32,000 nucleotides of DNA, from the NCBI GenBank assembly GCA_017305635.1, contig JAFKKF010000007.1:349330-381329 (forward strand), in the 5' to 3' direction. Positions 1,123-20,626 of this stretch are shown here, one piece after another. Position 1 is the first letter of the stretch. The number at the start of each line of letters is the position of its first letter. This stretch comes from Hyphomicrobiales bacterium (GTDB lineage: Bacteria > Pseudomonadota > Alphaproteobacteria > Rhizobiales > Kaistiaceae). Below the pieces are notes generated by a model. The model ran no database searches. It had not been told where the DNA came from and saw nothing but the letters and a program-made list of their open reading frames with translations. The translations under genes and the position numbers were made by a program.

Positions 1123-3776
1123 TCCGCCTCCCAGACCTGAGTGACTTCGCCGAGCCGCTCCGTGGCGGCCGGCATCTTGCGTTTGCAGTAGGTGGCGTTG
1201 GCGTTGGCCGGCAGGGCAAAGGCGAGGTCGTCGTAGTCGCCGCCGGTATCCGGCCCAGGCAGGGCCGCGCCGCCGGCGAGACTCGCCCGTGCCGCGCGCA
1301 GATAGCCGGTGATCTCCACGAGCACCGCCTCGGGGTCGTCGAGCTGGAGATCGACGGGATCGCGTGGGTAGAGCAGCGAGGCGCTGATCGCGACGTCATC
1401 GCCGAGCAGCGCCTTGACCGCGAACGCATAGAGGCAGCGCTGAAGCTCGCGTCCGCCGTTCAATCGGATGTCGCCGCGCGGCGGGCGGCCGGTCTTATAG
1501 TCGCGCACGAGGGCGCGTTTGCCGTCGCCCGCAATGTCGAGCCGGTCGATATAGCCGGCGATGTTGAAGCCCGTGTCGGGGATCGTGACTGGCGTGCTCG
1601 AATCCCAAGGCGTCTGAGCGTCGGATTTCGGCTGCGAACCGCCGAAAGGAACCTCGCCGTAGGAACGCGCGCCTGGCAGAAGGTCATCGCCATAGGACAG
1701 GGCGCGGCTCGCCAGCATGCGGGCGTCGTCGAGGGTGCGCCCCCAGATGACCGCCGGCGGAACCGGGCGCTCGCTTTCCCAGTCGGCGGCGACGGCTTGC
1801 GCGGCCCGCGCCACGGCGGCTTCGATGGTCTGTGCGTCGGCGGCCGCAAGGCCGCCCCCGGCTTCGAGGTCGCGCAGGGCGTGGTCGAGAACCAGGTGGA
1901 CAAGATCGCCGATCCCGAGCGCGTCGAGCACGAGCGGTTCGGCGCTGCTCTGGGGTTCGCGCCATCCGAACGCATAGATCCACACGAAGCTCAGCGGATT
2001 GCGCAGCAGTCGGCGCAGCGAGCTGGCCGATTGGGTCCGGCCGAGGATGGCGAGGACGAGCGGATGATCCGCGCGCACGAGTCCATCGTGGGGGGTGATC
2101 TCGATCTGTCGCCAGTCGCGCCAGCAGCCTTGCGCGCTGACGGCTTGCGGATCGGCGGCGAATTCCTCGGGCCGCGCCATCAGGCGATCGGTCTCGCTGA
2201 AGGCGTGCGCCGGCGTCGCGTTGCGGCGCAGATAGGTCTCGTCGCCATGTCCGGCGAGCAGAGGGCTGCGCCCCAGGAGACGGCCGTCGCTGTCGCGCCG
2301 TGCGCGCGACAGGACGACGGTGTCGCCCGTCGTGGCGAGGATCGTCTCGAAATCGCGCCGGTCGGCGAGATTGACCGGCAGCGGATCGAGCACCGGGGTC
2401 GGGATGATATGGTCGGGGATCAGCCGGTCTTCGGCGATCCCGCGCGGCCAGCGGGACGAATTGAGGCCAAGCAGCCGCACGAAGCGGCGAGGCGACGCCG
2501 CAAGCGCACTGGCCGGCATCCAGGCGATGCAGACGCAGGCTTCCAGTCCGTCGTCCTGCTTCAGGGTCTCGAGCGTCGCATCGACCGAGGCGGCGGGGCC
2601 GGCGAGCAGCGCCTTGCGCCAGATCGCGAGGGCTCGGCCCTTGAGAAAGGCTTCTCCGATCTCACCGGCGGCCTCCGGCCCTTTCGCCAACGTCTCGACC
2701 GCCGCGCGCAAAGCCGGGGCATGGTCGGCGCCATCGGGCCAGTCGTCCGCCGTCAACCGGGCGAGCAGGCGGTTCCAGGCGCCCGGCGTCGAGAGCGGCG
2801 CATCGGTGGGCAGGACTCGCAGCCAGCCTTCGGGCAGCGACCCAAAAGGTCCGCTGTCCCGGCAGAGCGCGGCAAGCCGACGCAACCGCGAGTGCGACAG
2901 GCCGCGGACCACGATGTCGGCCAGCGCCGCGGCGGCCTGACCGTCGCGGGTGGTGACGGTCCGGACGCCGTGGACGAAATGCAGGTCGATGTTGGCGTCG
3001 GCGCGCAGAGCCAGGAAGTGATCGTCATAGTCGGCGGGCGAGGCGGTCGCGATGGCGATCTCCGAGGGGACGACGCCCGAGGCGAGCAAGCCGCGCGCCC
3101 AGCGCATCGCCTCGATGGCCTCGTGATAGGCCGTCGCCGCGCTGACGGCGTTGATTTTCGGCGCTTGCGCCGGCGCGCGAGCGATCGCGACGCCCGTTAC
3201 GTCCAGCCACACGGGAACGCTCCTCGGGCCGGCCGTCCACTGCACGGGGATATGGGCGGTGAGCGCCTGAAGCAGCGGCCGCCAGCACGGCGAGAGTTCG
3301 GTGAGCCCGACGATCTCCATCGGACCAAGCACCGCCGGCGCATGGGCGAGGCGCTCGGTCGCGGCGGCGGCGATGTCGAGAGGCCGCAGCATGCCGGTCG
3401 GAAGCTGGTCGAGGACGGCCGCCTCCAGGCGTGCGATGGCGGCGAGGCGCGGATGGTCATCGGTCGCGCATGCGGCAAGGTCGATGCCCGCGCGCCAGGC
3501 TTTGTGCAGCGTGTCGGCCGCCGCATCGATCATGCCGGGCAGGGTCTTGATGCTTTCCAGTTCGCCCATCGGCGTGACGGACAGGGCCGCCTGGATGGCC
3601 GCGTGCAGGCTCTCGTCATCGATCGGGCGGACGAAACCGCCGGCCAGCCGGACGGCGGCCTGCTCGAAGGACATGATCTGGAGGCCGTGCCGACCGGTAC
3701 GCCCCGCCGTGAGGCGGTTCTCCCGCATAGCGAGGCGGCCGTGAACGACCAAGGTAGATCGATGCGCGATGGTCAT
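1119..3776 (-). CDS. PD-(D/E)xK nuclease family protein, AddB-like partner of the UvrD helicase
   Basis: 885-aa ORF. The C-terminus carries a RecB-type nuclease signature, GYIDRLDIAGDGKRALVRDYKTGRPP...ELQRCLYAFAV (D...D-Y-K...Q..Y). I found no Walker A in the N-terminal part, as in inactivated-helicase AddB/RexB proteins. Stop codon overlaps the helicase ATG by 4 nt. Confidence 0.8.
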   Translation of the reverse strand: MTIAHRSTLVVHGRLAMRENRLTAGRTGRHGLQIMSFEQAAVRLAGGFVRPIDDESLHAAIQAALSVTPMGELESIKTLPGMIDAAADTLHKAWRAGIDLAACATDDHPRLAAIARLEAAVLDQLPTGMLRPLDIAAAATERLAHAPAVLGPMEIVGLTELSPCWRPLLQALTAHIPVQWTAGPRSVPVWLDVTGVAIARAPAQAPKINAVSAATAYHEAIEAMRWARGLLASGVVPSEIAIATASPADYDDHFLALRADANIDLHFVHGVRTVTTRDGQAAAALADIVVRGLSHSRLRRLAALCRDSGPFGSLPEGWLRVLPTDAPLSTPGAWNRLLARLTADDWPDGADHAPALRAAVETLAKGPEAAGEIGEAFLKGRALAIWRKALLAGPAASVDATLETLKQDDGLEACVCIAWMPASALAASPRRFVRLLGLNSSRWPRGIAEDRLIPDHIIPTPVLDPLPVNLADRRDFETILATTGDTVVLSRARRDSDGRLLGRSPLLAGHGDETYLRRNATPAHAFSETDRLMARPEEFAADPQAVSAQGCWRDWRQIEITPHDGLVRADHPLVLAILGRTQSASSLRRLLRNPLSFVWIYAFGWREPQSSAEPLVLDALGIGDLVHLVLDHALRDLEAGGGLAAADAQTIEAAVARAAQAVAADWESERPVPPAVIWGRTLDDARMLASRALSYGDDLLPGARSYGEVPFGGSQPKSDAQTPWDSSTPVTIPDTGFNIAGYIDRLDIAGDGKRALVRDYKTGRPPRGDIRLNGGRELQRCLYAFAVKALLGDDVAISASLLYPRDPVDLQLDDPEAVLVEITGYLRAARASLAGGAALPGPDTGGDYDDLAFALPANANATYCKRKMPAATERLGEVTQVWEAE

Positions 3777-3885: not shown

Positions 3886-3915
3886 TTGACGAAACCCCCT
3901 AATGGGAATAATAAT
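3886..3915 (+). promoter_or_regulatory. Candidate sigma70-type promoter for the WYL regulator and defence operon
   Basis: TTGACG at 3886-3891, an 18-nt spacer, AATAAT at 3910-3915. It lies in the conspicuously AT-rich 200-bp divergent intergenic region, about 60 nt upstream of the ATG at 3977. An imperfect palindrome GGACCTCAGCAGGTTGTCC (3921-3939) follows and could be an operator. Sequence pattern only. Confidence 0.3.
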
Positions 3916-3976
3916 TACACGGACCTCAGCAGGTTGTCCATATAGTTTTTATCCTCATGTTGGCGAGGCAAGGCAA

Positions 3977-4861
3977 ATGGCGGAAGCCACGACGGCGTTG
4001 AAATGGGGGGTGGGGCGCCGACTCGAATTCATCGAGTTTCGGCTGTTCTGGGAGGGGTCGATCAACCGGGCCGACCTTGTCGAGGCGTTCGGCGTGTCAG
4101 TTCCGCAGGCTTCCAAGGATTTGACGCTCTATCAGGAGCGGGCGCCCGGCAACATGGAGTACGACACCCGCGCCAAGCGCTACGTCGCCGCCGAAAAATT
4201 CGTACTGCGCTTCCTTGAACCGGACCCCTACATCTATCTGTCGCAGCTCCGCTCGGTCGCCGAGGGGGCTCTGCCTGCGAGCGACTCGTGGATCGCGGCG
4301 CTCCCCAGCGCCGATGTGGCGCTAACTCCCAGGCGGGACATCGACATCAAGGTTCTGCGGAAGATTCTCGACGCGAGCCGGGAGGGCGTTTCCATCGACG
4401 TCTTCTACCAGTCGATGAACAAGTTGCGGCCCGAGCCCACCTGGCGACGGATCACCCCGCACGCCTTCGGCTACGATGGTTTCCGCTGGCACGCGCGGGC
4501 CTATTGCCACCTCGAACACAAGTTCAAGGATTTCCTGCTGCCGCGAGTCCTCGACGTTGGCGCGAAGGGGGAGCCTGGCGAGGCGGGCGACCGGGACTGG
4601 CTCTGGAATAACTATTTCGACGTCATCATCGGCCCGCATCCGGGGCTTACGGCGAGCCAGAAGATGGTCGTCGCCAAGGATTATGGGCTGGACCAGGGAA
4701 ACGGCGTGCTCTCGGTTCGCTACGCCATGCTTTTTTACGTTTTGAAGCGCCTGGGTTTGCTTGGTGACGCCGCGAAACAGAGCGCCCATACACAGCATAT
4801 CGTAACAATAAACCGCAAGGAAACTGAAGCCGCGCTTGAGAAGGCGGAGCTTCAGCTATGA
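3977..4861 (+). CDS. wHTH-WYL domain transcriptional regulator, BrxR/CapW-like
   Basis: The ORF track frame starts at 3902; I prefer the internal ATG at 3977 (MAEATTALKWG...). N-terminal winged HTH (INRADLVEAFGVSVPQASKDLTLYQE). Central WYL-type domain (VSIDVFYQSMNKLRPEPTWRRITPHAFGYDGFRWHARAYCHLEHKFKDFLLPRVLDV). A C-terminal extension as in BrxR-family regulators that sit upstream of defence operons. Confidence 0.85.
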   Translation: MAEATTALKWGVGRRLEFIEFRLFWEGSINRADLVEAFGVSVPQASKDLTLYQERAPGNMEYDTRAKRYVAAEKFVLRFLEPDPYIYLSQLRSVAEGALPASDSWIAALPSADVALTPRRDIDIKVLRKILDASREGVSIDVFYQSMNKLRPEPTWRRITPHAFGYDGFRWHARAYCHLEHKFKDFLLPRVLDVGAKGEPGEAGDRDWLWNNYFDVIIGPHPGLTASQKMVVAKDYGLDQGNGVLSVRYAMLFYVLKRLGLLGDAAKQSAHTQHIVTINRKETEAALEKAELQL

Positions 4862-4882: not shown

Positions 4883-7800
4883 ATGCCGGCAAGGCTTGAG
4901 GAGATAAAGAACGGCGCCTCAGTGCGAGGCGTCGCTTCGGCGCAGCCCGTGCATGTGCTTTCGGTCGATTGGATCGGCGATCAGGCGATCAACGTCGTTT
5001 TCCGCGACCGCAACGGCACGGTGGCCGAGGCTGTTCTTTATCGCGACGATGAGCACCGTCTCGAGGTCGAGCAGAACGGCCGACCGTGGTCGTTCGATGT
5101 CGACGGCGCGTTGCTGCGCCTGGTGACGGAAGCCAACCGCATTAAGCTGGCGCACTATTTCGACCCGTATCTGGCGATTCACACGAGCCTGGTCGATCCG
5201 CTGCCGCACCAGATCTCGGCGGTCTATGGCGAGATGCTGCCGCGCCAACCGCTTCGCTTCCTCCTCGCCGACGATCCCGGCGCGGGCAAGACGATCATGG
5301 CCGGGTTGCTGATGAAGGAACTGATCGCCCGCAGCGATCTGGAACGCTGTCTTGTCGTTGCGCCGGGCAGCCTGGTCGAGCAATGGCAGGACGAACTCGG
5401 CCAGAAGTTCAATCTCGAGTTCGACATCCTTTCCCGCGACATGATCGAGAACTCGCGGTCGGGCAATCCGTTCAGCGATAGGGATCGGCTGATCGTCCGT
5501 CTCGACGTGTTGGCGCGCAACGAGGAGCTTCAGGAGAAGCTCATGAGCGCGCGCGAATGGGACCTGATTATCTGCGACGAAGCCCACCGCATGTCCGCCA
5601 CCTATTTCGGCGGTGAGGTCAAATATACGCGGCGCTATCAGGTCGGCCAGAAGCTCGGTCAGGTTTGCCGCCACCTACTGCTGATGTCGGCGACGCCGCA
5701 CAACGGCAAGGAAGAGGATTTCCAGCTCTTCATGGCGCTCCTCGACGGCGATCGGTTCGAGGGCCGGTTCCGCGACGGTGTCCACTATGCCGACACGGAA
5801 GACATGATGCGGCGGCTGACCAAGGAAGAGCTGCTCAAGTTCGATGGCCGGCCGCTGTTCCCCGAGCGGCGCGCGCGCACGGTCAAGTATCAGCTCTCGG
5901 AAGGGGAGGCAGCGCTCTACACCGCCGTCACCGAATATGTGCGCAGCGAGATGAACCGCGTGCAGCGCTTCGCCGAGGGCGACGGGAAGAAGCGCAACAA
6001 CGTCGGGTTTGCCTTGCAGATACTTCAGCGGCGTCTCGCCTCGTCGCCGGCCGCCATCTATCAGTCCCTCAAGCGCCGCCGGGAACGGTTGGAAAACGAG
6101 CTGGGCGAAGCGCGCCTGGCCGCCAAGGGCCGCCGGGCCGGCGCAACCGAGCCCGCGATCAACGCTGACATGCTGCGGAACATCGAGGAGTATGGCCAGG
6201 AGGAGATCGACGAGCTTGAGGATCTGATCTCGACGGGCGCGACGACGGCCGAGACGGTCGAGCAACTCGCTCTGGAAGTCGAAACCCTGAAGGGGTTGGA
6301 GACGATGGCGCTCGGCGTGCTGCGCTCAGGCGTGGACACGAAATGGAGCCAGCTCAATCGTATTCTCGACGATGATCTGATGGTCGACGCGGCCGGCAAT
6401 CGTCGCAAGCTGATCATCTTCACCGAGCCCAAGGACACGCTGCACTACCTGCTCGACAAGGTGCGGGCGCGGCTCGGCAACCCCGAGGCCGTCGAGGTGA
6501 TCCACGGCGGCGTGTCGCGCGAAGAGCGGCGCAAGGTCGTCGAGCGCTTCATGCAGGACAAGGACATGCTGGTCCTGATCGCCAACGACGCGGCGGGCGA
6601 AGGCGTGAACCTCCAGCGCGGCCATCTCATGGTCAATTACGACCTGCCGTGGAATCCGAACAAGATCGAGCAGCGGTTCGGCCGTATCCACCGCATCGGC
6701 CAGACCGAGGTTTGCCACCTGTGGAATCTCGTCGCGGCCGATACTCGCGAGGGCGAGGTTTACGCGCGGCTGCTGGAGAAACTGGAAGCGGCGCGCGAGG
6801 CGCTGGGCGGCCGGGTCTATGACGTGCTCGGCGAATTGTTCGACGGCGTGGCGCTGAAGGATTTGCTGTTCGAGGCGATCCAGTATGGCGAGCAGGAGGA
6901 CGTGAAAGCGCGTCTTTTCCAGCAGGTCGATGGTGCGGTGGATCAGGCGCACCTGCTCGAACTGCTGCGCCGCCGCGCCCTGACCAACGACACCATGCCG
7001 GAAGCGAGGGTCGAGGAATTGCGGCTGGAGATGGAGCGGGCCGAGGCGCTGCGCCTACAGCCGCACCACATCCAGAGCTTCTTCGTCGAGGCGTTCCAGC
7101 ATCTGGGCGGGCGCATCAAGCGCCGGGAGGAAGGGCGTTGGGAGGTCACGCATGTCCCGGTGCGCATCCGCGAGCGGGATCGCCAGATCGGAACCGGCGC
7201 GCCGCTCCAGACGCAGTATGAGCGCATCTGCTTCGAGAAGGACAAGATCAACCAGCAGCCCGTCGCCGCCTTCGTTTGTCCCGGCCACCCGCTGCTCGAG
7301 GCCGTGATCAGCCTGATCCGCGAACAGTATGAGCAGATTATGCGGCAGGGCGCGATCCTGGTCGACGACACCGACGCGGGCAATGCGCTGTCGGCGATTT
7401 TCCTGCTGGAACATACGGTCCAGGACGGTCGCGTCACCAGCGCCGGCAAGCCGCATGTGATCTCGCAGCGCCTCCAGTTCGCTGCGATCGACAAGGCCGG
7501 AAACACCGTCAACGCGGGCATCGCGCCGCATTTGAATCTGCGGCCGGCAACGCCGGAGGAAATCGGCAGCGTGCGAGAGCTTCTGGACGAGAGTTGGCTG
7601 ACCACCGACTTGGAGAAGGTCGCGATCCGGTTTGCGACGGTCGAACTGGCGCAAGGCCACGTCACAGAGGTCAAGGCGCGGCGGCTGCCCGAGATCGAAA
7701 AGGTCGAGCAGGAAGTTCGCGCTCGCCTCAAGAAGGAGATCAATTACTGGGACTCGCGCGCCTTCGAGCTGAAGGAGGAGGAGCGCGCCGGCAAGAAAAC

Positions 7801-8386
7801 GCGGGTGAACTGGCAGAACGCGCAGCGCCGTGCCGAAGACTTGGCGGATCGGCAGAAGCGGCGCATGGACCAGCTTGAGCGGGAGCGTTTCATCTCGTCG
7901 CAGCCCCCGCGTGTGCGGGGCGGCATGGTCGTCATTCCGCGTGGACTGTTGCAAGAGCGCCAGGCGCCGAGCATTCCGAACCATTTTGCAGAAGACCCGG
8001 CCGCGCGCCGGGAGATCGAGCTCGCGGCGATGGCGGCTGTGATGGCGGCCGAACGCGCGCTGGGCAACGAGCCCGCCGACGTCTCCGCCCAGAAGATCGG
8101 CTACGACATCGCGTCCCACGATCCGCGGTCGGGGCATCTGCGCTTCATCGAGGTCAAGGGCCGCATCGATGGCGCGGACAGCGTGATGGTCACGCGCCAG
8201 GAGGTCATCACCTCCCTGCATGAACCGGAGAAGTTTATTCTCGCCATCGTGCCGGTCGCCGCGGGTTTCGCTCATGCGCCGCGCTATGTGCGCGGCCCGC
8301 TCGTGGAACGGGAACCGTCGTTTCTCGAGACCGCGATCCAGTTCCATTTGCCACGCCTACTCGAGCGTGCGGAGGAACCGCGATGA
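4883..8386 (+). CDS. SNF2-family (SF2) helicase/translocase with a C-terminal DUF3883 PD-(D/E)xK-like domain
   Basis: 1167 aa. Motif I LADDPGAGKT, motif II DEAH (ICDEAHRM), motif III MSATPHNG, motif VI QRFGRIHRIGQ. C-terminal about 130 aa: AERALGNEPADVSAQKIGYDIASHD...LRFIEVKGR, giving a D (8105-8107) ... E-V-K (8150-8158) nuclease-fold signature typical of DUF3883. G-rich SD GGGGGGAG at 4869-4876. Confidence 0.9.
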   Translation: MPARLEEIKNGASVRGVASAQPVHVLSVDWIGDQAINVVFRDRNGTVAEAVLYRDDEHRLEVEQNGRPWSFDVDGALLRLVTEANRIKLAHYFDPYLAIHTSLVDPLPHQISAVYGEMLPRQPLRFLLADDPGAGKTIMAGLLMKELIARSDLERCLVVAPGSLVEQWQDELGQKFNLEFDILSRDMIENSRSGNPFSDRDRLIVRLDVLARNEELQEKLMSAREWDLIICDEAHRMSATYFGGEVKYTRRYQVGQKLGQVCRHLLLMSATPHNGKEEDFQLFMALLDGDRFEGRFRDGVHYADTEDMMRRLTKEELLKFDGRPLFPERRARTVKYQLSEGEAALYTAVTEYVRSEMNRVQRFAEGDGKKRNNVGFALQILQRRLASSPAAIYQSLKRRRERLENELGEARLAAKGRRAGATEPAINADMLRNIEEYGQEEIDELEDLISTGATTAETVEQLALEVETLKGLETMALGVLRSGVDTKWSQLNRILDDDLMVDAAGNRRKLIIFTEPKDTLHYLLDKVRARLGNPEAVEVIHGGVSREERRKVVERFMQDKDMLVLIANDAAGEGVNLQRGHLMVNYDLPWNPNKIEQRFGRIHRIGQTEVCHLWNLVAADTREGEVYARLLEKLEAAREALGGRVYDVLGELFDGVALKDLLFEAIQYGEQEDVKARLFQQVDGAVDQAHLLELLRRRALTNDTMPEARVEELRLEMERAEALRLQPHHIQSFFVEAFQHLGGRIKRREEGRWEVTHVPVRIRERDRQIGTGAPLQTQYERICFEKDKINQQPVAAFVCPGHPLLEAVISLIREQYEQIMRQGAILVDDTDAGNALSAIFLLEHTVQDGRVTSAGKPHVISQRLQFAAIDKAGNTVNAGIAPHLNLRPATPEEIGSVRELLDESWLTTDLEKVAIRFATVELAQGHVTEVKARRLPEIEKVEQEVRARLKKEINYWDSRAFELKEEERAGKKTRVNWQNAQRRAEDLADRQKRRMDQLERERFISSQPPRVRGGMVVIPRGLLQERQAPSIPNHFAEDPAARREIELAAMAAVMAAERALGNEPADVSAQKIGYDIASHDPRSGHLRFIEVKGRIDGADSVMVTRQEVITSLHEPEKFILAIVPVAAGFAHAPRYVRGPLVEREPSFLETAIQFHLPRLLERAEEPR

Positions 8387-9357
8387 GGATCACCAAAGGT
8401 CTGATCATCGCCGACCCGTGGATCGGCTACATTCTCAGCGGGACCAAGGACTGGGAGATGCGCTCCTCGGGGGCGTCACATCGCGGCTGGTTTGCGCTGA
8501 TCCGTAAAGGCAGTGGGACGATCTATGGCATTGCCCGACTGGTCGACGTGGGGTCGCCGCTATCGCCAACGGAGATGGTCGTCACGTTCGCGCATCATCG
8601 TATTCCCGAGCACATGATTCGGTCGGGCGAAGTCGCCAAATGGAATACGCCTTGGAAGCTCGCCGATGTGCGTCGGTTCGAACGTCCGATCCCGTATCGG
8701 CACAAGAGTGGTGCCGTGACTTGGGTCGAACTGGACGACGCAGCCATCGATGGTGTCGCCAGTCAGCTCGAGGCTGGAGATATGACGATCGCCCCCGAAG
8801 CAGCAGCGCGGCCGGATGACGGCTCGCGGCGTGATCGCGTTGGCAGCGCCGATACGGTGACGGTTGAGGTCTCTCAGTGCGGCAGGAAGCTGCATATCGA
8901 CATCGAATGGGATGATCGGGAGCCGGACGCTGTCGCGGCGGTGAAACCGCGACCTGCGCCAGTATCGCCCCGTCCTCTGACGCTGCCGCCTATAACGGCT
9001 GCGCAGACAGCAGCGGGGCGTGTGATCGGCGAGGTGGAGATTGCCGACGGAAATATCACGAACAACCACATCTACCTGCGCTCATTTTTCGACCGCTTTC
9101 CGGCCGACGTCATTGGCGGTTCAAACAAGGCGACGAGAGCAAGGCGCGATCTCACGATCGACTGGGGCGGCGCGGAGCCGGTCCAGACCGACCTCGACGG
9201 CCAGAAGAAGTTTTTCCGTGCTCGCGGCTGGATCGGCGCCTTCTATCAGTTGCATCGCGCTCAGGCCGGGGACCGCGTCGTGGTCGAGGAGATCACGGCC
9301 TATCATTATCGCGTCAGTCTCAGAAAACAGGGACCGCGAGCAGGAGCGGCCCGATGA
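8383..9357 (+). CDS. ASCH (PUA-like) domain protein with an A/P/R/D-rich linker and an unassigned, possibly B3/EcoRII-N-like, C-terminal domain
   Basis: 324 aa. N-terminal about 115 aa contain the ASCH signature GxKxxExR (SGTKDWEMR) in an ASCH-like context (IIADPWIGYILSGTKDWEMRS...GTIYGIARLVDV). C-terminal about 100 aa: NNHIYLRSFFDRFPADVIG...DLTIDWGG...KKFFRARGWIGAFYQLHRAQAGDRVVVEEI. ATGA overlap with the helicase stop; SD GGAGGAA at 8371-8377. Confidence 0.8.
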   Translation: MRITKGLIIADPWIGYILSGTKDWEMRSSGASHRGWFALIRKGSGTIYGIARLVDVGSPLSPTEMVVTFAHHRIPEHMIRSGEVAKWNTPWKLADVRRFERPIPYRHKSGAVTWVELDDAAIDGVASQLEAGDMTIAPEAAARPDDGSRRDRVGSADTVTVEVSQCGRKLHIDIEWDDREPDAVAAVKPRPAPVSPRPLTLPPITAAQTAAGRVIGEVEIADGNITNNHIYLRSFFDRFPADVIGGSNKATRARRDLTIDWGGAEPVQTDLDGQKKFFRARGWIGAFYQLHRAQAGDRVVVEEITAYHYRVSLRKQGPRAGAAR

Positions 9358-10346
9358 TCGACGGATTGGACGACCAGCTTTGTGATTGGGCTGAGCTGAA
9401 AGATCAGGAGGATTGGTCGGGACTGCTCATCGGCAACGGATTTAGCCAGAATCTGTGGCAGCGTTTTGGGTATGGTTCGCTATTCGAGACCGCAGCGCAA
9501 GGCGATGGAGCGCAGCTCAACGCCGCAGATGTCTCACTGTTTGACCGCCTGGAAACACGAAACTTCGAAGTTGTTTTGAGCGCCTTGGCGACCAGCAAGA
9601 CCGTGTCCGCGGCGCTCGATCAGCCACTGGCCCCGTTTTCAGAGCGAGAGGTCAGTATTCGGGAGGCGCTGATCCGGGCCGTCCATTCGGTCCATGTGCC
9701 ATGGCAATCCGTACCTGCCGCCCACCTCGACGTTATCGCCGCCGAACTATCAGCTTATGCGTCGATCTACTGCACGAATTATGACCTCACGCTCTATTGG
9801 GCGCTCATGCGGAATCAGAACGGCTTCCGGGATTATTTTTGGTCGGAGAAGTTCGACGTCACAAACACCGAGATCTGGGGCAAAAGGACCAAGGTGCATT
9901 TCCTGCATGGCGGCCTGCACCTCTATCGGCGACCGAACGGCCAGACATTGAAGAGACCGGCCGCGGCGGGACAAAACCTGCTCGATCTGTTCGGAACCGC
10001 CTATCAGGATTCTATGCCGCTCTTCATTTCGGAGGGGACGGCTCAGGAGAAGCTCGCGTCGATCTATCGGTCCGACTACCTCTCCTTTGTATTCGCTTGC
10101 CTGGCGCAGGACACGGAACCCTTGGTTGTCTTTGGTCACAGCCTTGGCGACAGCGACAAGCACCTCATAGACGCTATCGGAAACCACAAAGGCCGTTCGG
10201 TTGCCGTATCGCTCCGCGCCTCCGGCAACATTCGGCAGAAGAAGGCCGCGCTGATTGAAGCGCTGCCCGAAGCCACGCTGCATTTCTACGACGCCGCCAC
10301 GCATCCGCTGGGCGCAGAAAACCTCCAAATTGAAGAGCCCGCGTAA
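9354..10346 (+). CDS. DUF4917-family protein (SIR2-like fold inferred)
   Basis: 330 aa. N-terminal WSGLLIGNGFSQNLW matches the DUF4917 opening motif (LLxGNGFS). Also FLHGGLHLY and VVFGHSLGDSDKHLIDAI, which parallel the GxG..S / LHG / fGyS..D layout of SIR2-like defence proteins. ATGA overlap with the upstream gene (9354-9357); SD AGGAG at 9342-9346. Confidence 0.8.
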   Translation: MIDGLDDQLCDWAELKDQEDWSGLLIGNGFSQNLWQRFGYGSLFETAAQGDGAQLNAADVSLFDRLETRNFEVVLSALATSKTVSAALDQPLAPFSEREVSIREALIRAVHSVHVPWQSVPAAHLDVIAAELSAYASIYCTNYDLTLYWALMRNQNGFRDYFWSEKFDVTNTEIWGKRTKVHFLHGGLHLYRRPNGQTLKRPAAAGQNLLDLFGTAYQDSMPLFISEGTAQEKLASIYRSDYLSFVFACLAQDTEPLVVFGHSLGDSDKHLIDAIGNHKGRSVAVSLRASGNIRQKKAALIEALPEATLHFYDAATHPLGAENLQIEEPA

Positions 10347-13072
10347 TGACCCAGAATTACAAAAAGAAACTCATAGAAATCGCAATTCCACTCGAGGCGA
10401 TTAATGCGGCGTCGGCGCGGGAAAAATCGATCCGACACGGGCATCCGTCGACATTGCATCTATGGTGGGCGCGCCGTCCGCTCGCGGCATGTCGGGCGGT
10501 GCTGTTCGCCCAGCTTGTCGATGATCCGTCGAGCCATCCCGAAAAATTCGTGACCGAGGAGGAGATCGAAACTGAACGCGATCGTCTCTTCCGGATCATC
10601 GAGGACTTGGTGAAGTGGGAGAATTCTACCAACGAGGAAGTTCTGGAACGCGCCCGCGCTGAAATTCGCAGGAATTTTCCGGAAGGCGTCCCTCCGGCCT
10701 ATGACCCCTTTTCCGGGGGGGCCTCTATTCCACTCGAGGCTCTCCGGCTCGGTTTGCGGTCGACCGGGTCTGATCTCAACCCTGTTGCCGTGATGATCGG
10801 CAAGGCAATGATCGAGCTGCCTTCCCAATTCAAGGATCGGAAGCCTGTCCATCCCGGCAAACTGGAGCGCCTGCACTATCGCGGCGCTGAAGGTCTTGCC
10901 GAGGACATTCTCTGGTATGCGCAGGCGCTAACCGACAAGGCGCGGGAGAAAATTGGACACCTCTATCCGCAGGTCGCTCTTCCTAAGAAGGATGGCGGCG
11001 GCGAAGCTACCATCCTCGCTTGGCTGTGGGCCAGGACCGTTGCTAGTCCGAACCCGGCGGTGCGCGGCGCCCATGTCCCTTTGATTTCCAACTATTGGCT
11101 TTGCAACAAGCCCAAGAAATCAGTTTGGGTGCAGCCCACCATCAGCGGTTCTGACATCTCCTTCGAAATTCGCACTGGTAAACCCGCTGATCCGGGTGCC
11201 GTCGCGGCAGGCACCAAGGCGGGCCGGGGTGCGAATTTCAGATGCCTCCTAACCGGCGACGCGATCACGGCCGACTATGTGAAGGCCGAGGGCATGGCCG
11301 GTAGGATGGGCTGGCGACTGCTTGCCATAGTTTTGGAAGGTAAAGGCGGACGCCGATACGTTGCTCCAACAAAAGAACATGAAACTTTGGCTTTCAGCGA
11401 AAAGCCTGATTGGAGGCCGGAGTATCCTCTATCGCAACATCCCCAGTATATGAGTGTGACCAATTATGGTCCGACCAATATCGCCGATCTTTTCATGGAT
11501 CGGCAGACCATCGCGTTGAATACATTCATGGGCATCATTCCAGATGTTGTCCGCGAAATCTCGGACGAAGCATACCGAAAGGCAATCGTCTCATATCTTG
11601 TGTTGGGCGTGAGCAGGTTGGCTAACAGGCAGTCGACAAGCGCCTTTTGGGATACCGCTGGAGAGAACGTGCAGCAGGTGTTTGCAATGCAGGCCTTGCC
11701 GATGCGCTGGGACACGGTTGAAGGAAACCCGTTCTCGTCGTCCTCGGGCAATTTCATCGGTCAGGTCGAATATCTGGCGAAAGCCGTGGCCGCTCTTCCC
11801 TGTTCGGATCAGGGTGGCATCGAACACCAAATGGATGCCCAGAACGTAGATTTCTCAGGCTTCGTTATCTCTACCGACCCGCCGTATTACGACAACGTCC
11901 CTTATGCGGATTTGTCCGATTTCTTCTATGTCTGGCTGCGGAAAGGGCTGGCAGGGGCCTACCCGGACCTGTTTTCGACCATGCTGGTTCCCAAGCAAGA
12001 GGAACTGGTTGCCGACTATAAACGCCACGGCGGTAAGGACCAGGCCGACAGCTTCTTTCTCGAAGGTATGACTACCGTCATGCGTCACATGGCGACGCAG
12101 GGCCGGCCCGATGTGCCTGCTGCGATTTATTATGCTTTCCGGCAAGGCGAGGTCGACGAAAGCGGTTTCTCGGTTAAGGGGTGGGCGACCTTCCTTCAGG
12201 CGATTGTCGACGCCGGCTATTCGATCGGGGCGACATGGCCGGTACGGACCGAGCTTGTTGGCAACCTCAAGAAAAACAAAAACGCGCTCGCTACGTCTGT
12301 CGTGATGGCGTGTCGGCCTCGTGCGGCGGATGCCGAGACGATCTCGCGCATCGAGTTTATCCGGGCGCTGCGCCGTGAACTGCCCGCAGCCCTCAAGGAG
12401 ATGCACCGCGCAAGCATCGCTCCGGTGGATATTCCCCAGGCTTCCATCGGCCCCGGCATAGCGATTTTCAGCCGCTACGCCTCAGTGATCGAACGCGATG
12501 ACAGCCCGATGTCGGTGAAGACCGCCTTGCAAATCATCAACGAGGAACTGGATCAGTATCTTTCCTCTCAGGAAGGTGATTTTGATCCGGAGACGCGCTT
12601 TGCCGTGACCTGGTTCACTCAGCATGGGTACGAAAAGGGCTTGTTCGGCGATGCCGATAACCTTGCTCGCGCCCGTGGCATTTCGGTGGACGATGTACGC
12701 CATGCTGGCATCGTGGAATCATCGGCAGGGCGAGTCCGCATCTACAAGCGGGAAGACCTAGAGGACGATTGGAATCCCGAAACGGACCGCCATCTCACCA
12801 TCTGGGAATGTTGCCAGTATCTCGTGCGTCAACATCAACTGGATGGGTTGTCGCATGAGACGGCATTGCTCCTGAAGAAGGTTGGGAGCGACAAGGCCGA
12901 GGCGGTGAAGGACTTGGCTTACGTCCTTTATGAAATCAGCGACAAACGGCGGCAGGATCGCCAAGAGGCCACTACCTACAACGCGCTCGTCACCGACTGG
13001 ACCGAACTGACGCGGCAGGCTGCGGCGATCCACGACACCGTCGGCGATCGCCAGATCAAGCTGGACATCTGA
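10346..13072 (+). CDS. DUF1156-family DNA amino-methyltransferase (N6-adenine or N4-cytosine, DPPY type)
   Basis: 908 aa. Hallmark DUF1156 N-terminus LIEIAIPLEAINAASAREKSIRHGHPSTLHLWWARRPLAACRAVLFA. AdoMet motif I-like DPFSGGASIPLEA (10703-10741). Catalytic motif IV DPPY at 11876-11887 (ISTDPPYYDNVPYADLSDFFYVWL). The start overlaps the upstream TAA by 1 nt (TAATG). Confidence 0.9.
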   Translation: MTQNYKKKLIEIAIPLEAINAASAREKSIRHGHPSTLHLWWARRPLAACRAVLFAQLVDDPSSHPEKFVTEEEIETERDRLFRIIEDLVKWENSTNEEVLERARAEIRRNFPEGVPPAYDPFSGGASIPLEALRLGLRSTGSDLNPVAVMIGKAMIELPSQFKDRKPVHPGKLERLHYRGAEGLAEDILWYAQALTDKAREKIGHLYPQVALPKKDGGGEATILAWLWARTVASPNPAVRGAHVPLISNYWLCNKPKKSVWVQPTISGSDISFEIRTGKPADPGAVAAGTKAGRGANFRCLLTGDAITADYVKAEGMAGRMGWRLLAIVLEGKGGRRYVAPTKEHETLAFSEKPDWRPEYPLSQHPQYMSVTNYGPTNIADLFMDRQTIALNTFMGIIPDVVREISDEAYRKAIVSYLVLGVSRLANRQSTSAFWDTAGENVQQVFAMQALPMRWDTVEGNPFSSSSGNFIGQVEYLAKAVAALPCSDQGGIEHQMDAQNVDFSGFVISTDPPYYDNVPYADLSDFFYVWLRKGLAGAYPDLFSTMLVPKQEELVADYKRHGGKDQADSFFLEGMTTVMRHMATQGRPDVPAAIYYAFRQGEVDESGFSVKGWATFLQAIVDAGYSIGATWPVRTELVGNLKKNKNALATSVVMACRPRAADAETISRIEFIRALRRELPAALKEMHRASIAPVDIPQASIGPGIAIFSRYASVIERDDSPMSVKTALQIINEELDQYLSSQEGDFDPETRFAVTWFTQHGYEKGLFGDADNLARARGISVDDVRHAGIVESSAGRVRIYKREDLEDDWNPETDRHLTIWECCQYLVRQHQLDGLSHETALLLKKVGSDKAEAVKDLAYVLYEISDKRRQDRQEATTYNALVTDWTELTRQAAAIHDTVGDRQIKLDI

Positions 13073-13085: not shown

Positions 13086-16000
13086 GTGGCAAAAAGCACG
13101 CGCCAATATGTGTTTGAAGGAATGGAGTTGCTCCCGGCGGCGCTCATCCCGTTCGTAGAGAAAAGGCTGGAAAGTTCGCTTAAGGGGCACTGGCAGGTCC
13201 AGGTGCTGGAGAAGTTGCCGAACCTGCGCCCCAACAGCAGCGGTGAGGTCGGTTGGGACCAGGCCGCGCTGTTCAACGCCATGGATCGCTTTTGGAGCGA
13301 GGCGTTCAAGGCCGTGCTTGGCCGCGCCGAGCGCTCGCTGGTCAACGAGCTCGGGGATGTCCGCAACAAGCTCTCGCACAACGAGACCTTCACCTACGAC
13401 GACGCCGAACGTGCGCTCGATTCCATGCGGCGCTTGATGGAGGCGATCAGCGCCGGCGAGACGGCGGAGCAGCTCGGTAAGATGCGCGACACCATCCTGC
13501 GCACGAAGTTCACGGAGCTTCAGCGGAACGAGGAGAGGCGGAAAACCCAGCGCCTTGAGATTTCGGTCGAGACTGTGGCCGGGCTGTTGCCGTGGCGCGA
13601 GGTGGTCGAACCCCACCAGGATGTCGCCACCGGCGAGTTCCAGCAGGCCGAGTTCGCGGCCGACCTCGCCAAGGTGCATTCGGGCAGCGCGCCACCGGAA
13701 TACCGCGACCCGCGTCAGTTCTTCAGCCGCACCTATCTGACGGAAGGTTTGAGCGCGCTGTTGATTGGGGCCGCGAAGCGGCTGTCCGGTAGCGGCGGCG
13801 ATCCGGTCGTCGAACTGCAAACCAACTTTGGCGGCGGCAAGACGCACTCGATGTTGGCGCTCTATCACATGGCTGGGCCTGCCCCCGTGCAGGACCTCTC
13901 CGGCTTGGACCAGTTGCTCGAAAAGCAGGGGCTCAGCGTGCCGCAGGGCATCAACCGCGCCGTGCTCGTCGGCACGTCGCGCGGGCCGCAGGACGTGCTC
14001 CATGCCGAGGGCGATCGGAAGATTCGCACAACCTGGGGCGAACTCGCCTGGCAGCTTGGCGGCGCCGACGCTTTCGCCATGGTCGCGGAGAATGACGCCA
14101 GCGGCATCGCGCCGGGCTCGAACCTGCTGGAAGCGCTCTTCAAGAAATATGCGCCGTGCCTGATCCTGATCGACGAATGGGTCGCGTACCTGCGTCAGAT
14201 CTACAAGGTCGAGGGACTGCCGTCCGGGTCGTTCGATGCCAACCTGTCCTTCGTCCAGTCGCTGACCGAGGCGGTCAAGGCCAGCCCCGGCACGCTGCTC
14301 GTCGCGTCCTTGCCGGCCTCGCAGATCGAGGTGGGCGGCGAAGGCGGCCAGGAAGCGCTTGCTCGACTCAAGCAGACCTTCAGCCGCGTGGAATCCTCAT
14401 GGCGTCCGGCGAGTCAGGAGGAGAGCTATGAGATCGTCCGGCGGCGGCTGTTCAAGGACATCCCCGGCGACAAGTTCCACCATCGCGACAACACGCTGAA
14501 GCAGTTCGCGAAGCTCTACCGTGAGAACGCCAACGATTTTCCGCAAGGCTGCGCGGACGAAGACTATCGGCGCAAGTTGGAGAAGGCTTATCCGATCCAT
14601 CCCGAGTTGTTCGACCAGCTCTACACGAGCTGGGGGTCGCTCGAAAAATTCCAGCGCACGCGCGGCGTGCTGCGCCTGATGGCGCAGGCTATTCACGAGC
14701 TGTGGATGAACGCGGATCCGTCGGTGATGATCATGCCGGGCAGCGTGGCGGTGAGTTCACCGCGTGTGGAGCCCGAATTGCTGCACTATCTTGAGGTGAG
14801 TTGGCAGTCGATCATCGCCGGCGATGTCGATGGTGCGACGTCCACGCCCTACAAGATCGACCAGTCCGCGCCCAACCTAAACCGATACTCTGCGACGCGT
14901 CGCGTCGCGCGCGCGATCTTCATGGGGACGGCGCCGACGCATCAGCAGCAAAACACGGGCCTCGACGACAAACAGATCAACCTCGGCGTCGTGCAGCCCG
15001 GCGAGCGGCCCGCGATCTTTGGTGATGCGCTCCGGCGGCTAACCAACCAGGCCAAGTTCATGCACGCTGATCTCGGCCGCTACTGGTATTCCATGTCGGC
15101 CAGCCTCAATCGCATCGCGGCGGACAAGGCCGCGCAGATCGAGGCGGCATTGGTTGACGTTAGGATTGATGCGGAACTCGGCAAATATGTGAATGGCCTT
15201 GTGGACCGCGGGCATTTCGACGCCGTGCAGGTTGCGCCTGCTTCATCGGCCGAAGTGCCCGATGAAGCCGGAGGCGTGCGGGCCGTGGTGTTAGGGGTTG
15301 CACATCCACACAGCGGGCGCGACACGTCGGAGGCCCTCGCCGAGGCTAAGGACATGCTGACGCAGCGCGGTTCCGCACCGCGCGTTTATCGCAACATGCT
15401 GGTTTTCATTGCCGCAGACTCGCGCCAGCTCGATAACCTGAAGGACGCTATGCGCGCGTCCCTGGCCTGGGGCGAGATCGTTCGTGACAAGGAGCGTTTG
15501 GAGCTTCGGCCGAGCGATCAGAAACTCGCGGAGGCCAAGCTGGCCGAGGCGACAGAAACGATGAAGACGCGCCTCAAAGAGGCGTGGTGCTACCTGCATT
15601 ATCCGGCGCAGGAGAGCGCTCAGACCGATGTGGAGTGGGTCTCGGGCAAGATCCCGGCGCAGGATGGGCTACTGGCGCGCGCCAGCAAGAAGCTCGTGGC
15701 CGAGGAAGGTCTGTTGACCGAGCTGGGGCCGTCGCGTCTCGATCGCGATCTCCAGAAATACATCTGGAACGACAAGCCACATCTGTCGCTGAAGGATCTG
15801 CGGGAATACCTCAATCGCTACATCTATCTGCCCCGCCTCAAGGGGCAGGACGTCCTGATCAAGGCCGTGCAGGCGGCCGTCAGCGGCATGTTGCCCGGTC
15901 CCTTCGCCTATGCCGAGCGATGGGACGAGAAGACCGATACCTATCTGGGGCTCGCTATCGAGCGGGGCGGCAACGCGCCTGTGGTGATCGACAGCGATAG

Positions 16001-16388
16001 CGTCATCATCAAACCGGACGTGGCCGAAGCGCATCGCCCGGCGCCTTCGCAACCCGGGGCGGGTGATACGCCTGGAGGCGCCGACAGTGGCGGACCCACG
16101 CCCGCGCCTGGCGGGCCGGGCGTCGAGGAGACGCCTGCCACGCCGCCGACGGAAAAGAAGCCGACACGTTTCAGCGGCGCGGTGATGATTTCACCGGAGC
16201 GCCCCGCCAGGGACATTCACCAGATTGTCGAGGCGATCGTGGAGCAGCTGACGACGCTGCCCGGCAGCGAGGTGCGGTTGAGACTGGAGATCGAGGCGGA
16301 TGTGCCGGGTGGGCTTGATCGCGCCAAGGTGCGGACCTTGGTCGAGAATGCAAACACCCTGGGGTTTGTCGAGAAGTCAGTAGAGTGA
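13086..16388 (+). CDS. Swt1-like HEPN domain + DUF499 P-loop ATPase
   Basis: 1100 aa from a GTG start 13 nt after the MTase stop, preceded by GGGGGGA. HEPN Rx4H motif RNKLSH at 13362-13379 (ELGDVRNKLSHNETFTYDDAERALDSM). Walker A NFGGGKTHS (GGGKT 13830-13844). Walker B CLILIDEW (DE 14172-14177). A P/G-rich linker and a small C-terminal domain, as in DUF499 proteins. Confidence 0.9.
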   Translation: MAKSTRQYVFEGMELLPAALIPFVEKRLESSLKGHWQVQVLEKLPNLRPNSSGEVGWDQAALFNAMDRFWSEAFKAVLGRAERSLVNELGDVRNKLSHNETFTYDDAERALDSMRRLMEAISAGETAEQLGKMRDTILRTKFTELQRNEERRKTQRLEISVETVAGLLPWREVVEPHQDVATGEFQQAEFAADLAKVHSGSAPPEYRDPRQFFSRTYLTEGLSALLIGAAKRLSGSGGDPVVELQTNFGGGKTHSMLALYHMAGPAPVQDLSGLDQLLEKQGLSVPQGINRAVLVGTSRGPQDVLHAEGDRKIRTTWGELAWQLGGADAFAMVAENDASGIAPGSNLLEALFKKYAPCLILIDEWVAYLRQIYKVEGLPSGSFDANLSFVQSLTEAVKASPGTLLVASLPASQIEVGGEGGQEALARLKQTFSRVESSWRPASQEESYEIVRRRLFKDIPGDKFHHRDNTLKQFAKLYRENANDFPQGCADEDYRRKLEKAYPIHPELFDQLYTSWGSLEKFQRTRGVLRLMAQAIHELWMNADPSVMIMPGSVAVSSPRVEPELLHYLEVSWQSIIAGDVDGATSTPYKIDQSAPNLNRYSATRRVARAIFMGTAPTHQQQNTGLDDKQINLGVVQPGERPAIFGDALRRLTNQAKFMHADLGRYWYSMSASLNRIAADKAAQIEAALVDVRIDAELGKYVNGLVDRGHFDAVQVAPASSAEVPDEAGGVRAVVLGVAHPHSGRDTSEALAEAKDMLTQRGSAPRVYRNMLVFIAADSRQLDNLKDAMRASLAWGEIVRDKERLELRPSDQKLAEAKLAEATETMKTRLKEAWCYLHYPAQESAQTDVEWVSGKIPAQDGLLARASKKLVAEEGLLTELGPSRLDRDLQKYIWNDKPHLSLKDLREYLNRYIYLPRLKGQDVLIKAVQAAVSGMLPGPFAYAERWDEKTDTYLGLAIERGGNAPVVIDSDSVIIKPDVAEAHRPAPSQPGAGDTPGGADSGGPTPAPGGPGVEETPATPPTEKKPTRFSGAVMISPERPARDIHQIVEAIVEQLTTLPGSEVRLRLEIEADVPGGLDRAKVRTLVENANTLGFVEKSVE

Positions 16389-16502
16389 GTGCGGGGCAAC
16401 GTGGGTGCAATCCGCCATTTCTGTAAAACCATGCTTATTCAAACACATGAAACAATGAGGGGGTAAAATGTAGCGCGGCAAGATGTGGAGAAGAGTAGCT
16501 CC

Positions 16503-17453
16503 ATGGTGATCGAGTTGCGCAACATTCACTACTTCGTCGCGGCTGCGGAGCATGGTAGCTTTCGCAGGGCGGCGGCATTCCTGAGTATTCAGGAATCTGC
16601 CGTCAGCCGCCGCATCCGCGATCTCGAGGACCGGCTTGGCGCTTCCTTGTTCCACCGCCACTCCGGCGGCGTTTCCCTCACGGTGGCGGGCGAACGGTTT
16701 CTAAGTCGTGTGCGGATCGCCCTCCAGCAGATCGAAAATGGCGTCAACGATGTCGCCGCGATCGGCCGATCCGAGGACGGCATCGTCAAGATCGGCATCT
16801 TCTCGTCCCTGGCGTCGGGTTTCCTGTTCGACCTGATGAAGGCGTTCGACGAGAAGCATCCGCGCGTGACGGTCGAACTGATCGAAGGCAATCCATCGGT
16901 CCATGTCGCGGCGGTCCGGCAGCTCCAGCTCGACGTGGCGTTCATCACCGGCACGGGCGAGTGGCCCGGCTGCGAAACCGAGCAGCTATGGACGGAAGGC
17001 GTGTTCGCCGTCCTGCCGACGGAACACGGTCTTACGAAGAAGCAGAGCTTGCGCTGGCGCGATCTTGATGAGGAGACCTTCATCGTCAGCGATGCCGCGC
17101 CGGGACCGGAAATCCGCGATTATCTGGTCCAGCGCCTGGCGGATCTCGGCCGCCATCCGAACATCCACCCTCAATATGTCGGGCGCGATGTCCTTCTGTC
17201 GATGGTCGCCGTGGGGCGCGGACTGACAGTGGTCAGCGAGGCGGCGACCGGCGCGCGCTTTCCCGGCGTCGTCTATCGGCAGATCGCAGATGAGGTCCTG
17301 CCGTTCAGTGCGATCTGGTCGCGCCGAAACGACAATCCGGCATTTCGCAGGTTTCTCAGCCTTGCTCGAATACTGTCGCGATCCGAAAGCGCGAATATCA
17401 AACGGACGGGTTCGCCCGCTTCGCCTTCGCAAAGCCGCGATCCGTCCCGATGA
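16503..17453 (+). CDS. LysR-family transcriptional regulator
   Basis: MVIELRNIHYFVAAAEHGSFRRAAAFLSIQESAVSRRIRDLEDRLGASLFHRHSGGVSLTVAGERFL is a canonical LysR HTH, followed by a substrate-binding-type domain. The track starts at GTG 16485; I prefer ATG 16503. Confidence 0.85.
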   Translation: MVIELRNIHYFVAAAEHGSFRRAAAFLSIQESAVSRRIRDLEDRLGASLFHRHSGGVSLTVAGERFLSRVRIALQQIENGVNDVAAIGRSEDGIVKIGIFSSLASGFLFDLMKAFDEKHPRVTVELIEGNPSVHVAAVRQLQLDVAFITGTGEWPGCETEQLWTEGVFAVLPTEHGLTKKQSLRWRDLDEETFIVSDAAPGPEIRDYLVQRLADLGRHPNIHPQYVGRDVLLSMVAVGRGLTVVSEAATGARFPGVVYRQIADEVLPFSAIWSRRNDNPAFRRFLSLARILSRSESANIKRTGSPASPSQSRDPSR

Positions 17454-20624: not shown

Positions 20625-20626
20625 GG

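Follow-up and report, generated by a model that had tools for sequence, protein, structure and literature searches.

The DNA analysed here, a 32,000 nt stretch from a Hyphomicrobiales bacterium of the Kaistiaceae (GenBank assembly GCA_017305635.1, contig JAFKKF010000007.1, positions 349,330 to 381,329 of the forward strand), is referred to below as the window. It contains a defence operon in which one gene encodes a 324 aa protein, composed of an N-terminal ASCH domain, a linker, and a C-terminal domain predicted to adopt the fold of B3-type DNA-binding pseudobarrels (Table 1). This ASCH-B3 protein recurs behind the SNF2 helicase genes of two different types of defence system, Hma and Zorya type I.

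The operon is a Hma system, since renamed a Type-1 'DUF499-centred BREX-related' system (PMC12839542), as established by matches to Pfam and PADLOC models. Hence the placement of the gene inside a DUF1156/DUF499 operon by the original prediction, which a model had made from the sequence alone, is borne out. The open reading frame (ORF) had also been correctly delimited, at 8383-9357, and the translational coupling proposed for both of its ends is evident in two ATGA overlaps, with hmaA upstream (8383-8386) and with a DUF4917 gene downstream (9354-9357); the latter gene overlaps hmaB by 1 nt (TAATG). As both domains are conserved across a family of 468 proteins homologous to the full-length sequence, mostly alphaproteobacterial, this is not a chance ORF.

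Each of the two domains is basic, with an isoelectric point (pI) of about 9.5. Searches of Pfam, NCBIfam and PADLOC, together with fold searches, found neither a nuclease nor an ATPase in the protein, nor any other domain recognisable as an effector, and neither NCBIfam nor PADLOC holds a model that matches it; the sole candidate effector feature is a possibly catalytic pocket in the ASCH domain. Nor is it a type IV modification-dependent restriction endonuclease, with sensor and nuclease in one chain, as the nuclease sits in the neighbouring HmaA. The protein is likewise not a defined component of Hma, having no PADLOC model, and only three core genes are attributed to the system in its publications (PMC11232893, PMC12839542).

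The linker is shortened in many homologues. Within its otherwise disordered length, AlphaFold2 (AF2) places a beta-hairpin with moderate confidence at residues 159-176 (8857-8910), a segment present only in long-linker homologues (sphingomonads, Bradyrhizobium, Brucella) and deleted in many others.

Table 1. Features of the ASCH-B3 gene and of the Hma operon, numbered from the first position of the window.
Feature	Position	Strand	Evidence and remarks
WYL / BrxR-like regulator, first gene of operon	3902..4861	+	Pfam, PADLOC
HmaA, SNF2 helicase with C-terminal NOV_C PD-(D/E)XK nuclease	4883..8386	+	PADLOC 1584 bits; Pfam SNF2/Helicase_C/NOV_C
Shine-Dalgarno-like GGAGGAA	8371..8377	+	5 nt before ATG, within hmaA 3' end; read from sequence
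ATGA, hmaA stop overlapping ASCH-B3 start	8383..8386	+	4-nt overlap kept in related Hma loci
Complete gene, ASCH + B3-like protein, 324 aa	8383..9357	+	ATG start; stop codon included
ASCH / PUA-like beta-barrel, residues 1-131, pI 9.5	8383..8775	+	Profile match, AF2 model, Foldseek
ASCH octapeptide G20-T-K22-D-W24-E25-M-R27	8440..8463	+	K22/E25 are counterparts of K23/E26 of TthASCH (2DP9)
Acidic, variable, mostly disordered linker, residues 132-209	8776..9009	+	Alignment, AF2 model
B3-like DNA-binding pseudobarrel (predicted), residues 210-316, pI 9.5	9010..9330	+	AF2 and Foldseek
T269-D-L-D-G-Q-K275-K-F-F-R279-A-R281, best-conserved motif of B3-like family	9187..9225	+	30-member alignment
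ATGA, ASCH-B3 stop overlapping DUF4917 start	9354..9357	+	Read from sequence
DUF4917 / PDC-S21	9354..10346	+	Pfam, PADLOC; weak SIR2-like PADLOC matches
HmaB, DUF1156 N6-adenine methyltransferase	10346..13072	+	PADLOC 1070 bits; Pfam
HmaC, HEPN_Swt1 + DUF499 AAA+ ATPase	13086..16388	+	PADLOC 953 bits; Pfam

The N-terminal ASCH domain

The Pfam ASCH profile (PF04266) scores 17.8 bits against the whole protein and 19.8 bits against the isolated domain, relative to a gathering threshold of 21.2, which is exceeded by three more distant relatives with an N-domain of the same subfamily (26.2, 23.1 and 21.3 bits). A profile built from 33 homologues matches TTHA0113 of Thermus (TthASCH; PDB 2DP9/1WK2) with E=1.6e-14 across residues 6-119, at ~30% identity. 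Searching with the AF2 model, Foldseek retrieved 2DP9 (E 2.6e-6), the ASCH domain of TRIP4, including its complexes with double-stranded DNA (dsDNA) and ASCC3, then ZmASCH and, after these, YTH domains. Family profile, fold matches and relatives above the Pfam cut-off together confirm the domain as an ASCH, PUA-like barrel, as had been recognised from the signature G-T-K-D-W-E-M-R; the structure search that had been proposed as a check on this assignment thus returned the expected PUA-like barrel. In the alignment of the 33 homologues, which all contain the GxKxxExR motif, K22, W24, E25, M26 and R27 are invariant, and the octapeptide persists in distant, Zorya-linked and stand-alone relatives.

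A 2026 preprint describes TthASCH as an N4-acetylcytidine (ac4C) amidohydrolase, for which Tyr14, Lys23, Glu26 and Arg28 are required and to which Tyr81 contributes; all 19 of the ASCH proteins tested there deacetylated tRNA. The four required residues align with W13, K22, E25 and R27, all of them invariant in the present family, whilst Tyr81 is replaced by an equally invariant Gly82, such that four of the five functional residues are counted as conserved. Hence the view in the original prediction that no catalytic motif is visible appears doubtful, as GxKxxExR holds the Lys/Glu dyad reported to be essential for the activity of TTHA0113. The motif may be catalytic here too, in which case the ASCH domain may be an eraser of base modifications and not only a reader, two roles that are indistinguishable from sequence.

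The C-terminal B3-like domain

The C-terminal domain is as conserved as the N-terminal one among the 33 homologues, and AF2 models it with high confidence, the predicted local distance difference test score of residues 210-316 being 93 when modelled alone and >90 in the full-length model. In a Foldseek search of the PDB with this model, all 28 of the top matches were B3 or related DNA-binding pseudobarrels, with probabilities near 1 and template modelling (TM) scores of 0.40-0.66, mostly 0.5-0.66; later matches were noise, with TM <0.3. These 28 included the plant proteins FUS3, NGA1, RAV1, TEM1, ARF1/2/5, VRN1, LEC2 and At1g16640, as well as two restriction enzyme domains, LlaJI.R1-N and BfiI-C. 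The model has the seven-stranded open pseudobarrel and two helices of the B3 fold, in addition to its matches with solved B3-type structures. Of the B3/EcoRII-N-like character proposed for this region from pattern recognition, the B3 part therefore stands at the level of fold, the suggested structure search having found a B3-type DNA-binding fold, but EcoRII-N matched neither in Pfam nor among the 50 best fold matches listed.

Sequence similarity is much fainter. No significant match to the domain was found in Pfam, NCBIfam or the PDB, profile searches of the last giving only noise, as did a viral fold search in BFVD (the phage collection was not searched by sequence). Pfam B3 (PF02362) has no match to the sequence itself; it appears below threshold in four of 30 diverse members of the domain's own family, where it is the commonest such family, with a best E of 0.0011. 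When aligned by hhalign with the B3 domain of RAV1, whose identity was checked against 1WID, the family gave E 4e-4 and a probability of 35% over 40 columns, pairing TDIDGxKKxFR with EDVNGKVWRFR of RAV1 and also aligning a shared 'GD.V' strand. The first of these segments belongs to the T269-R281 motif, the D, K and first R of which are invariant among the 30 diverse members, and the conserved K275, R279 and R281 align with the KVWRFR strand of RAV1. Together with the pI of 9.5, these residues suggest that the domain would bind duplex DNA in the major groove. A further candidate identity, the DUF3780 domain that accompanies ASCH in Type-2 systems, was rejected: there is no Pfam match, and the beta-rich pseudobarrel is unlike the fold described for DUF3780.

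A large prokaryotic family of B3-like domains

In a search of 1.84 billion cluster representatives, 661 clusters matched a profile of the B3-like domain. Many are stand-alone proteins of ~104 aa; others are tandem duplications, combinations with ASCH in both domain orders, or fusions to HEPN_Swt1, an RNase T-type exonuclease, RNase H or HNH. The domain represents a large prokaryotic family for which Pfam has no model. Among the 30 diverse members, P240, G245, D270, K275 and R279 are invariant and N224, H229, Y231, T269, R281 and others nearly so. Such constancy is unusual for the domains of site-specific restriction enzymes, and suggests that members recognise a common feature of their ligand rather than varied sequences.

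Stand-alone members in Gammaproteobacteria lie in islands of small unknown genes, surroundings that say little about function. Three of these 104 aa genes, each at 8001-8315 of its locus (L005, L007 and L008), are part of long same-strand arrays of small unknown genes, some encoding TIR_2/SEFIR and SUKH/SMI1 proteins, which look like arrays of cassettes or of immunity genes. One copy directly follows a Gabija-like pair of OLD-TOPRIM and UvrD genes.

Distribution of the gene behind SNF2 helicases

The survey of genomic context suggested alongside the original prediction was run as a scan in which each GTDB species was represented by one genome; it yielded 51 loci, typed by local tblastn and blastp searches and spot-checked with Pfam and PADLOC. 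The protein was found to recur behind HmaA in 24 loci, each from a different species, and behind ZorD in 11. The former have the order BrxR-HmaA-[ASCH-B3-like]-(0 to 4.7 kb variable cargo)-HmaB-HmaC, part of which is not visible in the four that end at a contig edge. Wherever the junction lies on the contig, the gene comes directly after hmaA, normally with the 4-nt overlap, the exceptions being L019 and L020. The Zorya loci, from Rhodobacterales and Rhizobium, read ZorA-ZorB-ZorC-ZorD-[ASCH-B3-like], with the gene last in a Zorya type I operon; in one of them (L034), PADLOC scored ZorB at 388, ZorC at 522 and ZorD at 1269 bits, and Pfam identified EH_Signature and SNF2 domains. A twelfth Zorya-type locus (L042) has its ZorD-like gene on the opposite strand, and a single locus has the arrangement HsdR-HsdM-HsdS-[ASCH-B3-like]-GmrSD, that is, a type I restriction-modification (RM) system.

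The interval between hmaA and hmaB is a hotspot for the insertion of other defence genes, Septu being found there in Halomonas (PMC11232893). Of the related Hma loci in the present set, about 25 in all, only three (L010, L026 and the window itself) hold DUF4917 there, with other loci having a TmtA-like gene, a PDC-M55C/HEC-05-like gene, a 163 aa ORF or nothing. Hence DUF4917 is incidental cargo, and its coupling to the ASCH-B3 gene, in which the original prediction had seen a meaningful link, is equally so; its absence from most related Hma loci also excludes it as a functional partner. The conserved neighbour is the upstream SNF2 helicase. A conserved methyltransferase beside the Zorya-linked copies was considered and rejected too, as the MTS-like gene following the L034 copy is unique to that locus.

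Relatives that consist of ASCH only, or that have other C-terminal domains, also adjoin Hma or Zorya-like genes (L052, L054, L055 and L057). Two of these (L054, 3305-4048; L055, 10001-10770) have the same ASCH subfamily fused to a different C-terminal domain of ~70 aa, which has no Pfam match and carries the motif ...DG[ST]xFSP...GxxG[DE]E...W[RK]RPNxxGNWGIV...; both genes lie a few kb from ZorD-like helicases, and in L055 from a ZorB-like gene as well. In Paracoccus fontiphilus (L038, 9974-10915), the Zorya-linked gene is split into an ASCH ORF of 146 aa and a B3-like ORF of 152 aa, which is either a natural two-gene version or the result of a frameshift. Stand-alone copies of the N-domain, with 36-49% identity, are common on plasmids of Vibrio, Paenibacillus and Bacillus; one, on V. 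cholerae pSA7G1 (L061), lies between a Dam methylase and another methylase with a restriction endonuclease. A plasmid match in Piscirickettsia salmonis (H25, NZ_CP013758.1) aligns residues 1-114, at 29% identity, with the N terminus of an annotated Druantia DruA, so ASCH-like barrels may also head DruA proteins.

Divergence of the operon components

The divergence of the ASCH-B3 protein tracks that of HmaA (rho 0.70) and HmaC (rho 0.67) across 17 loci, which are phylogenetically non-independent. Co-variation with the methyltransferase HmaB was also sought and not found (rho 0.20). As the Zorya type I operons lack a methyltransferase and divergence does not track HmaB, the earlier suggestion of a modification sensor, when taken to mean a sensor of the system's own methyl mark, is not favoured.

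When the HmaB proteins of loci L012-L041 are compared with that of the window (10346-13072), their identities group into two classes (about 50-58% and 87-89%), whereas in the same loci HmaA and HmaC remain at 72-98% identity. This suggests that recombination has exchanged the methyltransferase gene, which determines specificity, separately from the other genes of the operon.

Proposed function

We give an even chance to the proposal that the ASCH-B3 protein is an accessory recognition subunit, a portable adaptor for SNF2 helicase-nucleases. It would be a non-nuclease component acting with the SNF2-family helicase-nuclease encoded immediately upstream, HmaA in the window and ZorD in Zorya type I. 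To judge from their folds and partners, the B3-like pseudobarrel would hold the protein to nucleic acid, duplex DNA being the likeliest form, and in the ASCH barrel W13, K22, E25 and R27 would line a pocket for a base, probably cytosine or adenine in modified form, which would there be either read or hydrolysed. The flexible acidic linker might let the two basic domains engage neighbouring sites. The outcome, as suggested by genomic linkage only, would be that the translocase-nuclease is recruited to, loaded onto or licensed for invader DNA with a particular chemical feature, by which the target range of the host system could be widened or gated. This proposal is supported by the identities of the two domains, their basic character, the lack of an effector domain, the recurrence of the gene behind SNF2 helicases, with conserved translational coupling to the helicase-nuclease, and the co-divergence with HmaA and HmaC. 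There are precedents in the B3-like domains through which NTP-dependent restriction enzymes (BfiI, LlaJI.R1, CglI/NgoAVII) recognise DNA (PMC5861437), in the TRIP4 ASCH domain beside the ASCC3 helicase (PMC10076317), and in a stand-alone EVE protein for which the equivalent role was predicted (PMC7641849).

A number of points weigh against it. The tie of the protein to HmaA or ZorD is a genomic one, and adjacency alone is weak evidence, because the interval downstream of hmaA is known to attract insertions of unrelated defence genes; in the two exceptional loci, L019 and L020, a 1.7-kb stretch, with a GmrSD-like match in L019, separates hmaA from the gene. Type-1 systems have been reported in 2446 taxa (PMC12839542), as against about 24 species with the gene here, and as only a small minority of Hma systems carry it, it is dispensable for the core mechanism. 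HmaA alone, studied in the Halomonas system, protects against T4 via its nickase domain, and did so in E. coli (PMC11232893). The near-invariance of the polar residues across 660 B3-like clusters argues against sequence-specific recognition of varied sites, and, given that such domains are also found fused to RNase H, RNase T and HEPN, the ligand could be RNA or a hybrid instead.

Two alternatives are the best placed, both of them unlikely. In the first, ASCH would be an active amidohydrolase that, tethered by the B3-like domain, clears phage DNA or an RNA of an acyl- or amide-type base modification and thereby opens the way for the neighbouring restriction machinery, or that removes ac4C from tRNA as a translation-directed effector. 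The reported activity of TTHA0113, the closest solved relative at 30% identity, and of all 19 ASCH proteins assayed is consistent with this, as is the invariance of W13, K22, E25 and R27 and the retention of the motif in Zorya-linked and stand-alone relatives. However, Tyr81 of TthASCH is matched by the invariant Gly82, and the activity comes from one preprint, measured on RNA or nucleosides and not on DNA; in the literature searched, no phage DNA modification of such chemistry has been linked to Hma or Zorya. The same residues could also serve binding alone, the ASCH domain of TRIP4 being one that also binds dsDNA (8yfi, 9kyl).

The second alternative, which we likewise regard as improbable, is that a self-contained small defence or regulatory gene, with no functional tie to the helicase, landed in the hotspot behind hmaA, as DUF4917 did. 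The variety of cargo in this interval, including Septu in Halomonas (PMC11232893), and the existence of family members outside Hma or Zorya (L029, L031 and L044) accord with it. Yet, with the exception of L019 and L020, the gene is the first after the helicase, with other cargo behind it, and the ATGA overlap is conserved; it also co-diverges with HmaA and HmaC, takes the corresponding place in 11 Zorya operons, where the SNF2 helicase before it is a different one, ZorD, and encodes no recognisable effector domain.

It is very doubtful that the protein instead acts as a transcription factor or antitoxin-like brake, its B3-like domain binding an operator or the nuclease to restrain a toxic helicase-nuclease until infection. 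Plant B3 domains are transcription factors, three of the 30 B3-like family members have sub-threshold matches of MazE/AbrB type, and the gene is translationally coupled to that of the nuclease; but a BrxR/WYL regulator is already present in the operon, in which the gene occupies a middle position (it comes last in those of Zorya), the recurrent fusions of the B3-like domain are to nucleases rather than to sensor or oligomerisation domains, and HmaA alone was not reported to be toxic (PMC11232893). Equally little probability attaches to a reader of self marks, in which ASCH would recognise the N6-methyladenine made by HmaB and the B3-like domain the same motif, protecting host DNA from HmaA and HmaC: PUA-like YTH domains do read this base and the operon does encode an N6-adenine methyltransferase, but the same protein accompanies Zorya type I without one, HmaB falls into two identity classes while the ASCH-B3 protein varies continuously, and the B3-like family shows almost no variation at the residues presumed to contact bases.

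The adaptor proposal can also be combined with catalysis. There is a slim chance that the protein is a portable adaptor for otherwise unrelated systems with SNF2/SF2 motors (Hma, Zorya I and type I RM) whose ASCH domain is catalytically active on DNA, an 'anti-anti-restriction eraser' that would remove an acyl- or amide-type protective modification from phage bases and so re-expose the genomes to the partner nuclease. If so, what the B3-like family recognises in DNA would be structure or modification rather than sequence.

The conjugative element around the operon

Beyond the defence operon, the window contains a Trb-type type IV secretion and conjugation module (17627-31839 on the reverse strand, with 16485-17453 on the forward strand), from which the operon is separated by a LysR regulator. 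The module includes TrbI, CagX/TrbG, VirB8-like, TrbE/VirB4-like, TrbC pilin and TraG/VirD4 coupling proteins and DUF3363. The neighbours LysR-DUF2274-TrbI-CagX also follow the Hma operon in three related loci (L001-L003). Since the Trb module adjoins the operon, and the same neighbours follow it in these loci, the whole Hma island is carried by a conjugative element, in which it occupies a fixed site.

Divergent from the BrxR gene, and running off the left end (1119-3776, reverse strand), is a gene for an 885 aa PD-(D/E)XK (PDDEXK_1) protein. The same gene is found in L001 and L002, followed there by one for a 1132 aa UvrD-helicase/PDDEXK protein, with which it makes up a pair resembling AddAB. 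The element may thus have here another module, for defence or maintenance.

Comparison with known systems

The Hma system, its PUA-like accessories and the B3-like domains of restriction enzymes are already known. No description of the ASCH-B3 protein was found in the searchable literature on Hma, BREX-related or Zorya systems; as far as that literature shows, the new elements are this particular protein, its repeated occurrence after SNF2 helicases in Hma as well as in Zorya, and the large unnamed prokaryotic B3-like family with its nuclease fusions. Current understanding is not overturned by these findings. As Hma/DUF499 and Zorya are widespread anti-phage systems, a shared and exchangeable recognition subunit would provide a handle on how they select targets, and the protein is small, soluble-looking and easily deleted or purified. 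Assigning a fold and partners to the ~660-cluster B3-like family should improve the annotation of defence islands, and a testable question is raised, namely whether defence-linked ASCH domains read or remove modified bases.

The claim that such a component is not part of the usual DUF1156/DUF499 modules holds only for the two-domain protein, as PUA-like readers have already been reported in these systems (PMC7641849, PMC12839542). An archaeal operon of COG1743 methylase, DUF499 and SWI2/SNF2-nuclease genes includes a stand-alone EVE protein, for which Bell et al. 2020 (PMC7641849) predicted a role in marking modified foreign DNA for the SNF2 helicase-nuclease. In both cases a PUA-superfamily domain is encoded within the same kind of defence operon, but the archaeal protein is a single domain, with no B3-like partner and no link to Zorya. 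In Type-2 DUF499-centred systems, ASCH/PUA or RAMA is fused to DUF3780 (PMC12839542), so that, as here, an ASCH module and a second small domain form a dedicated extra gene of a DUF499 system. However, DUF3780 is an alpha+beta domain with a four-stranded sheet and five helices, whereas the partner here is a B3-like pseudobarrel, and Pfam finds no DUF3780 in the protein; the system in the window is moreover of Type-1, with a NOV_C helicase and HEPN-DUF499. The main text of the same paper makes no mention of B3 or pseudobarrel domains.

The N-terminal domain shares with TTHA0113 (2DP9, 1WK2) a GKER-type octapeptide and the conserved K, E, R and aromatic residues, but TTHA0113 is a single domain of 121 aa with no defence context. 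TRIP4 (ASC-1; 8alz, 8yfi) provides a parallel as an ASCH protein that binds DNA and is a cofactor of an SF2 helicase, its ASCH domain docking beside ASCC3 and stimulating it (PMC10076317; 8alz). It differs in being eukaryotic, in docking through a zinc finger, in serving a Ski2-like rather than an SNF2 helicase, and in having neither a B3-like domain nor a role in defence.

The C-terminal domain has the same predicted fold as BfiI-C, LlaJI.R1-N and the plant B3 factors (TM 0.5-0.66). Unlike the B3-like domains of restriction enzymes, it falls below every family threshold in similarity, has no nuclease fused to it here, and has polar surface residues that are nearly invariant. Nevertheless, in CglI/NgoAVII and LlaJI a B3-like module is paired with an NTP-driven motor that is a protein of its own (PMC5861437), which is the arrangement proposed here for the ASCH-B3 protein and its helicase partners.

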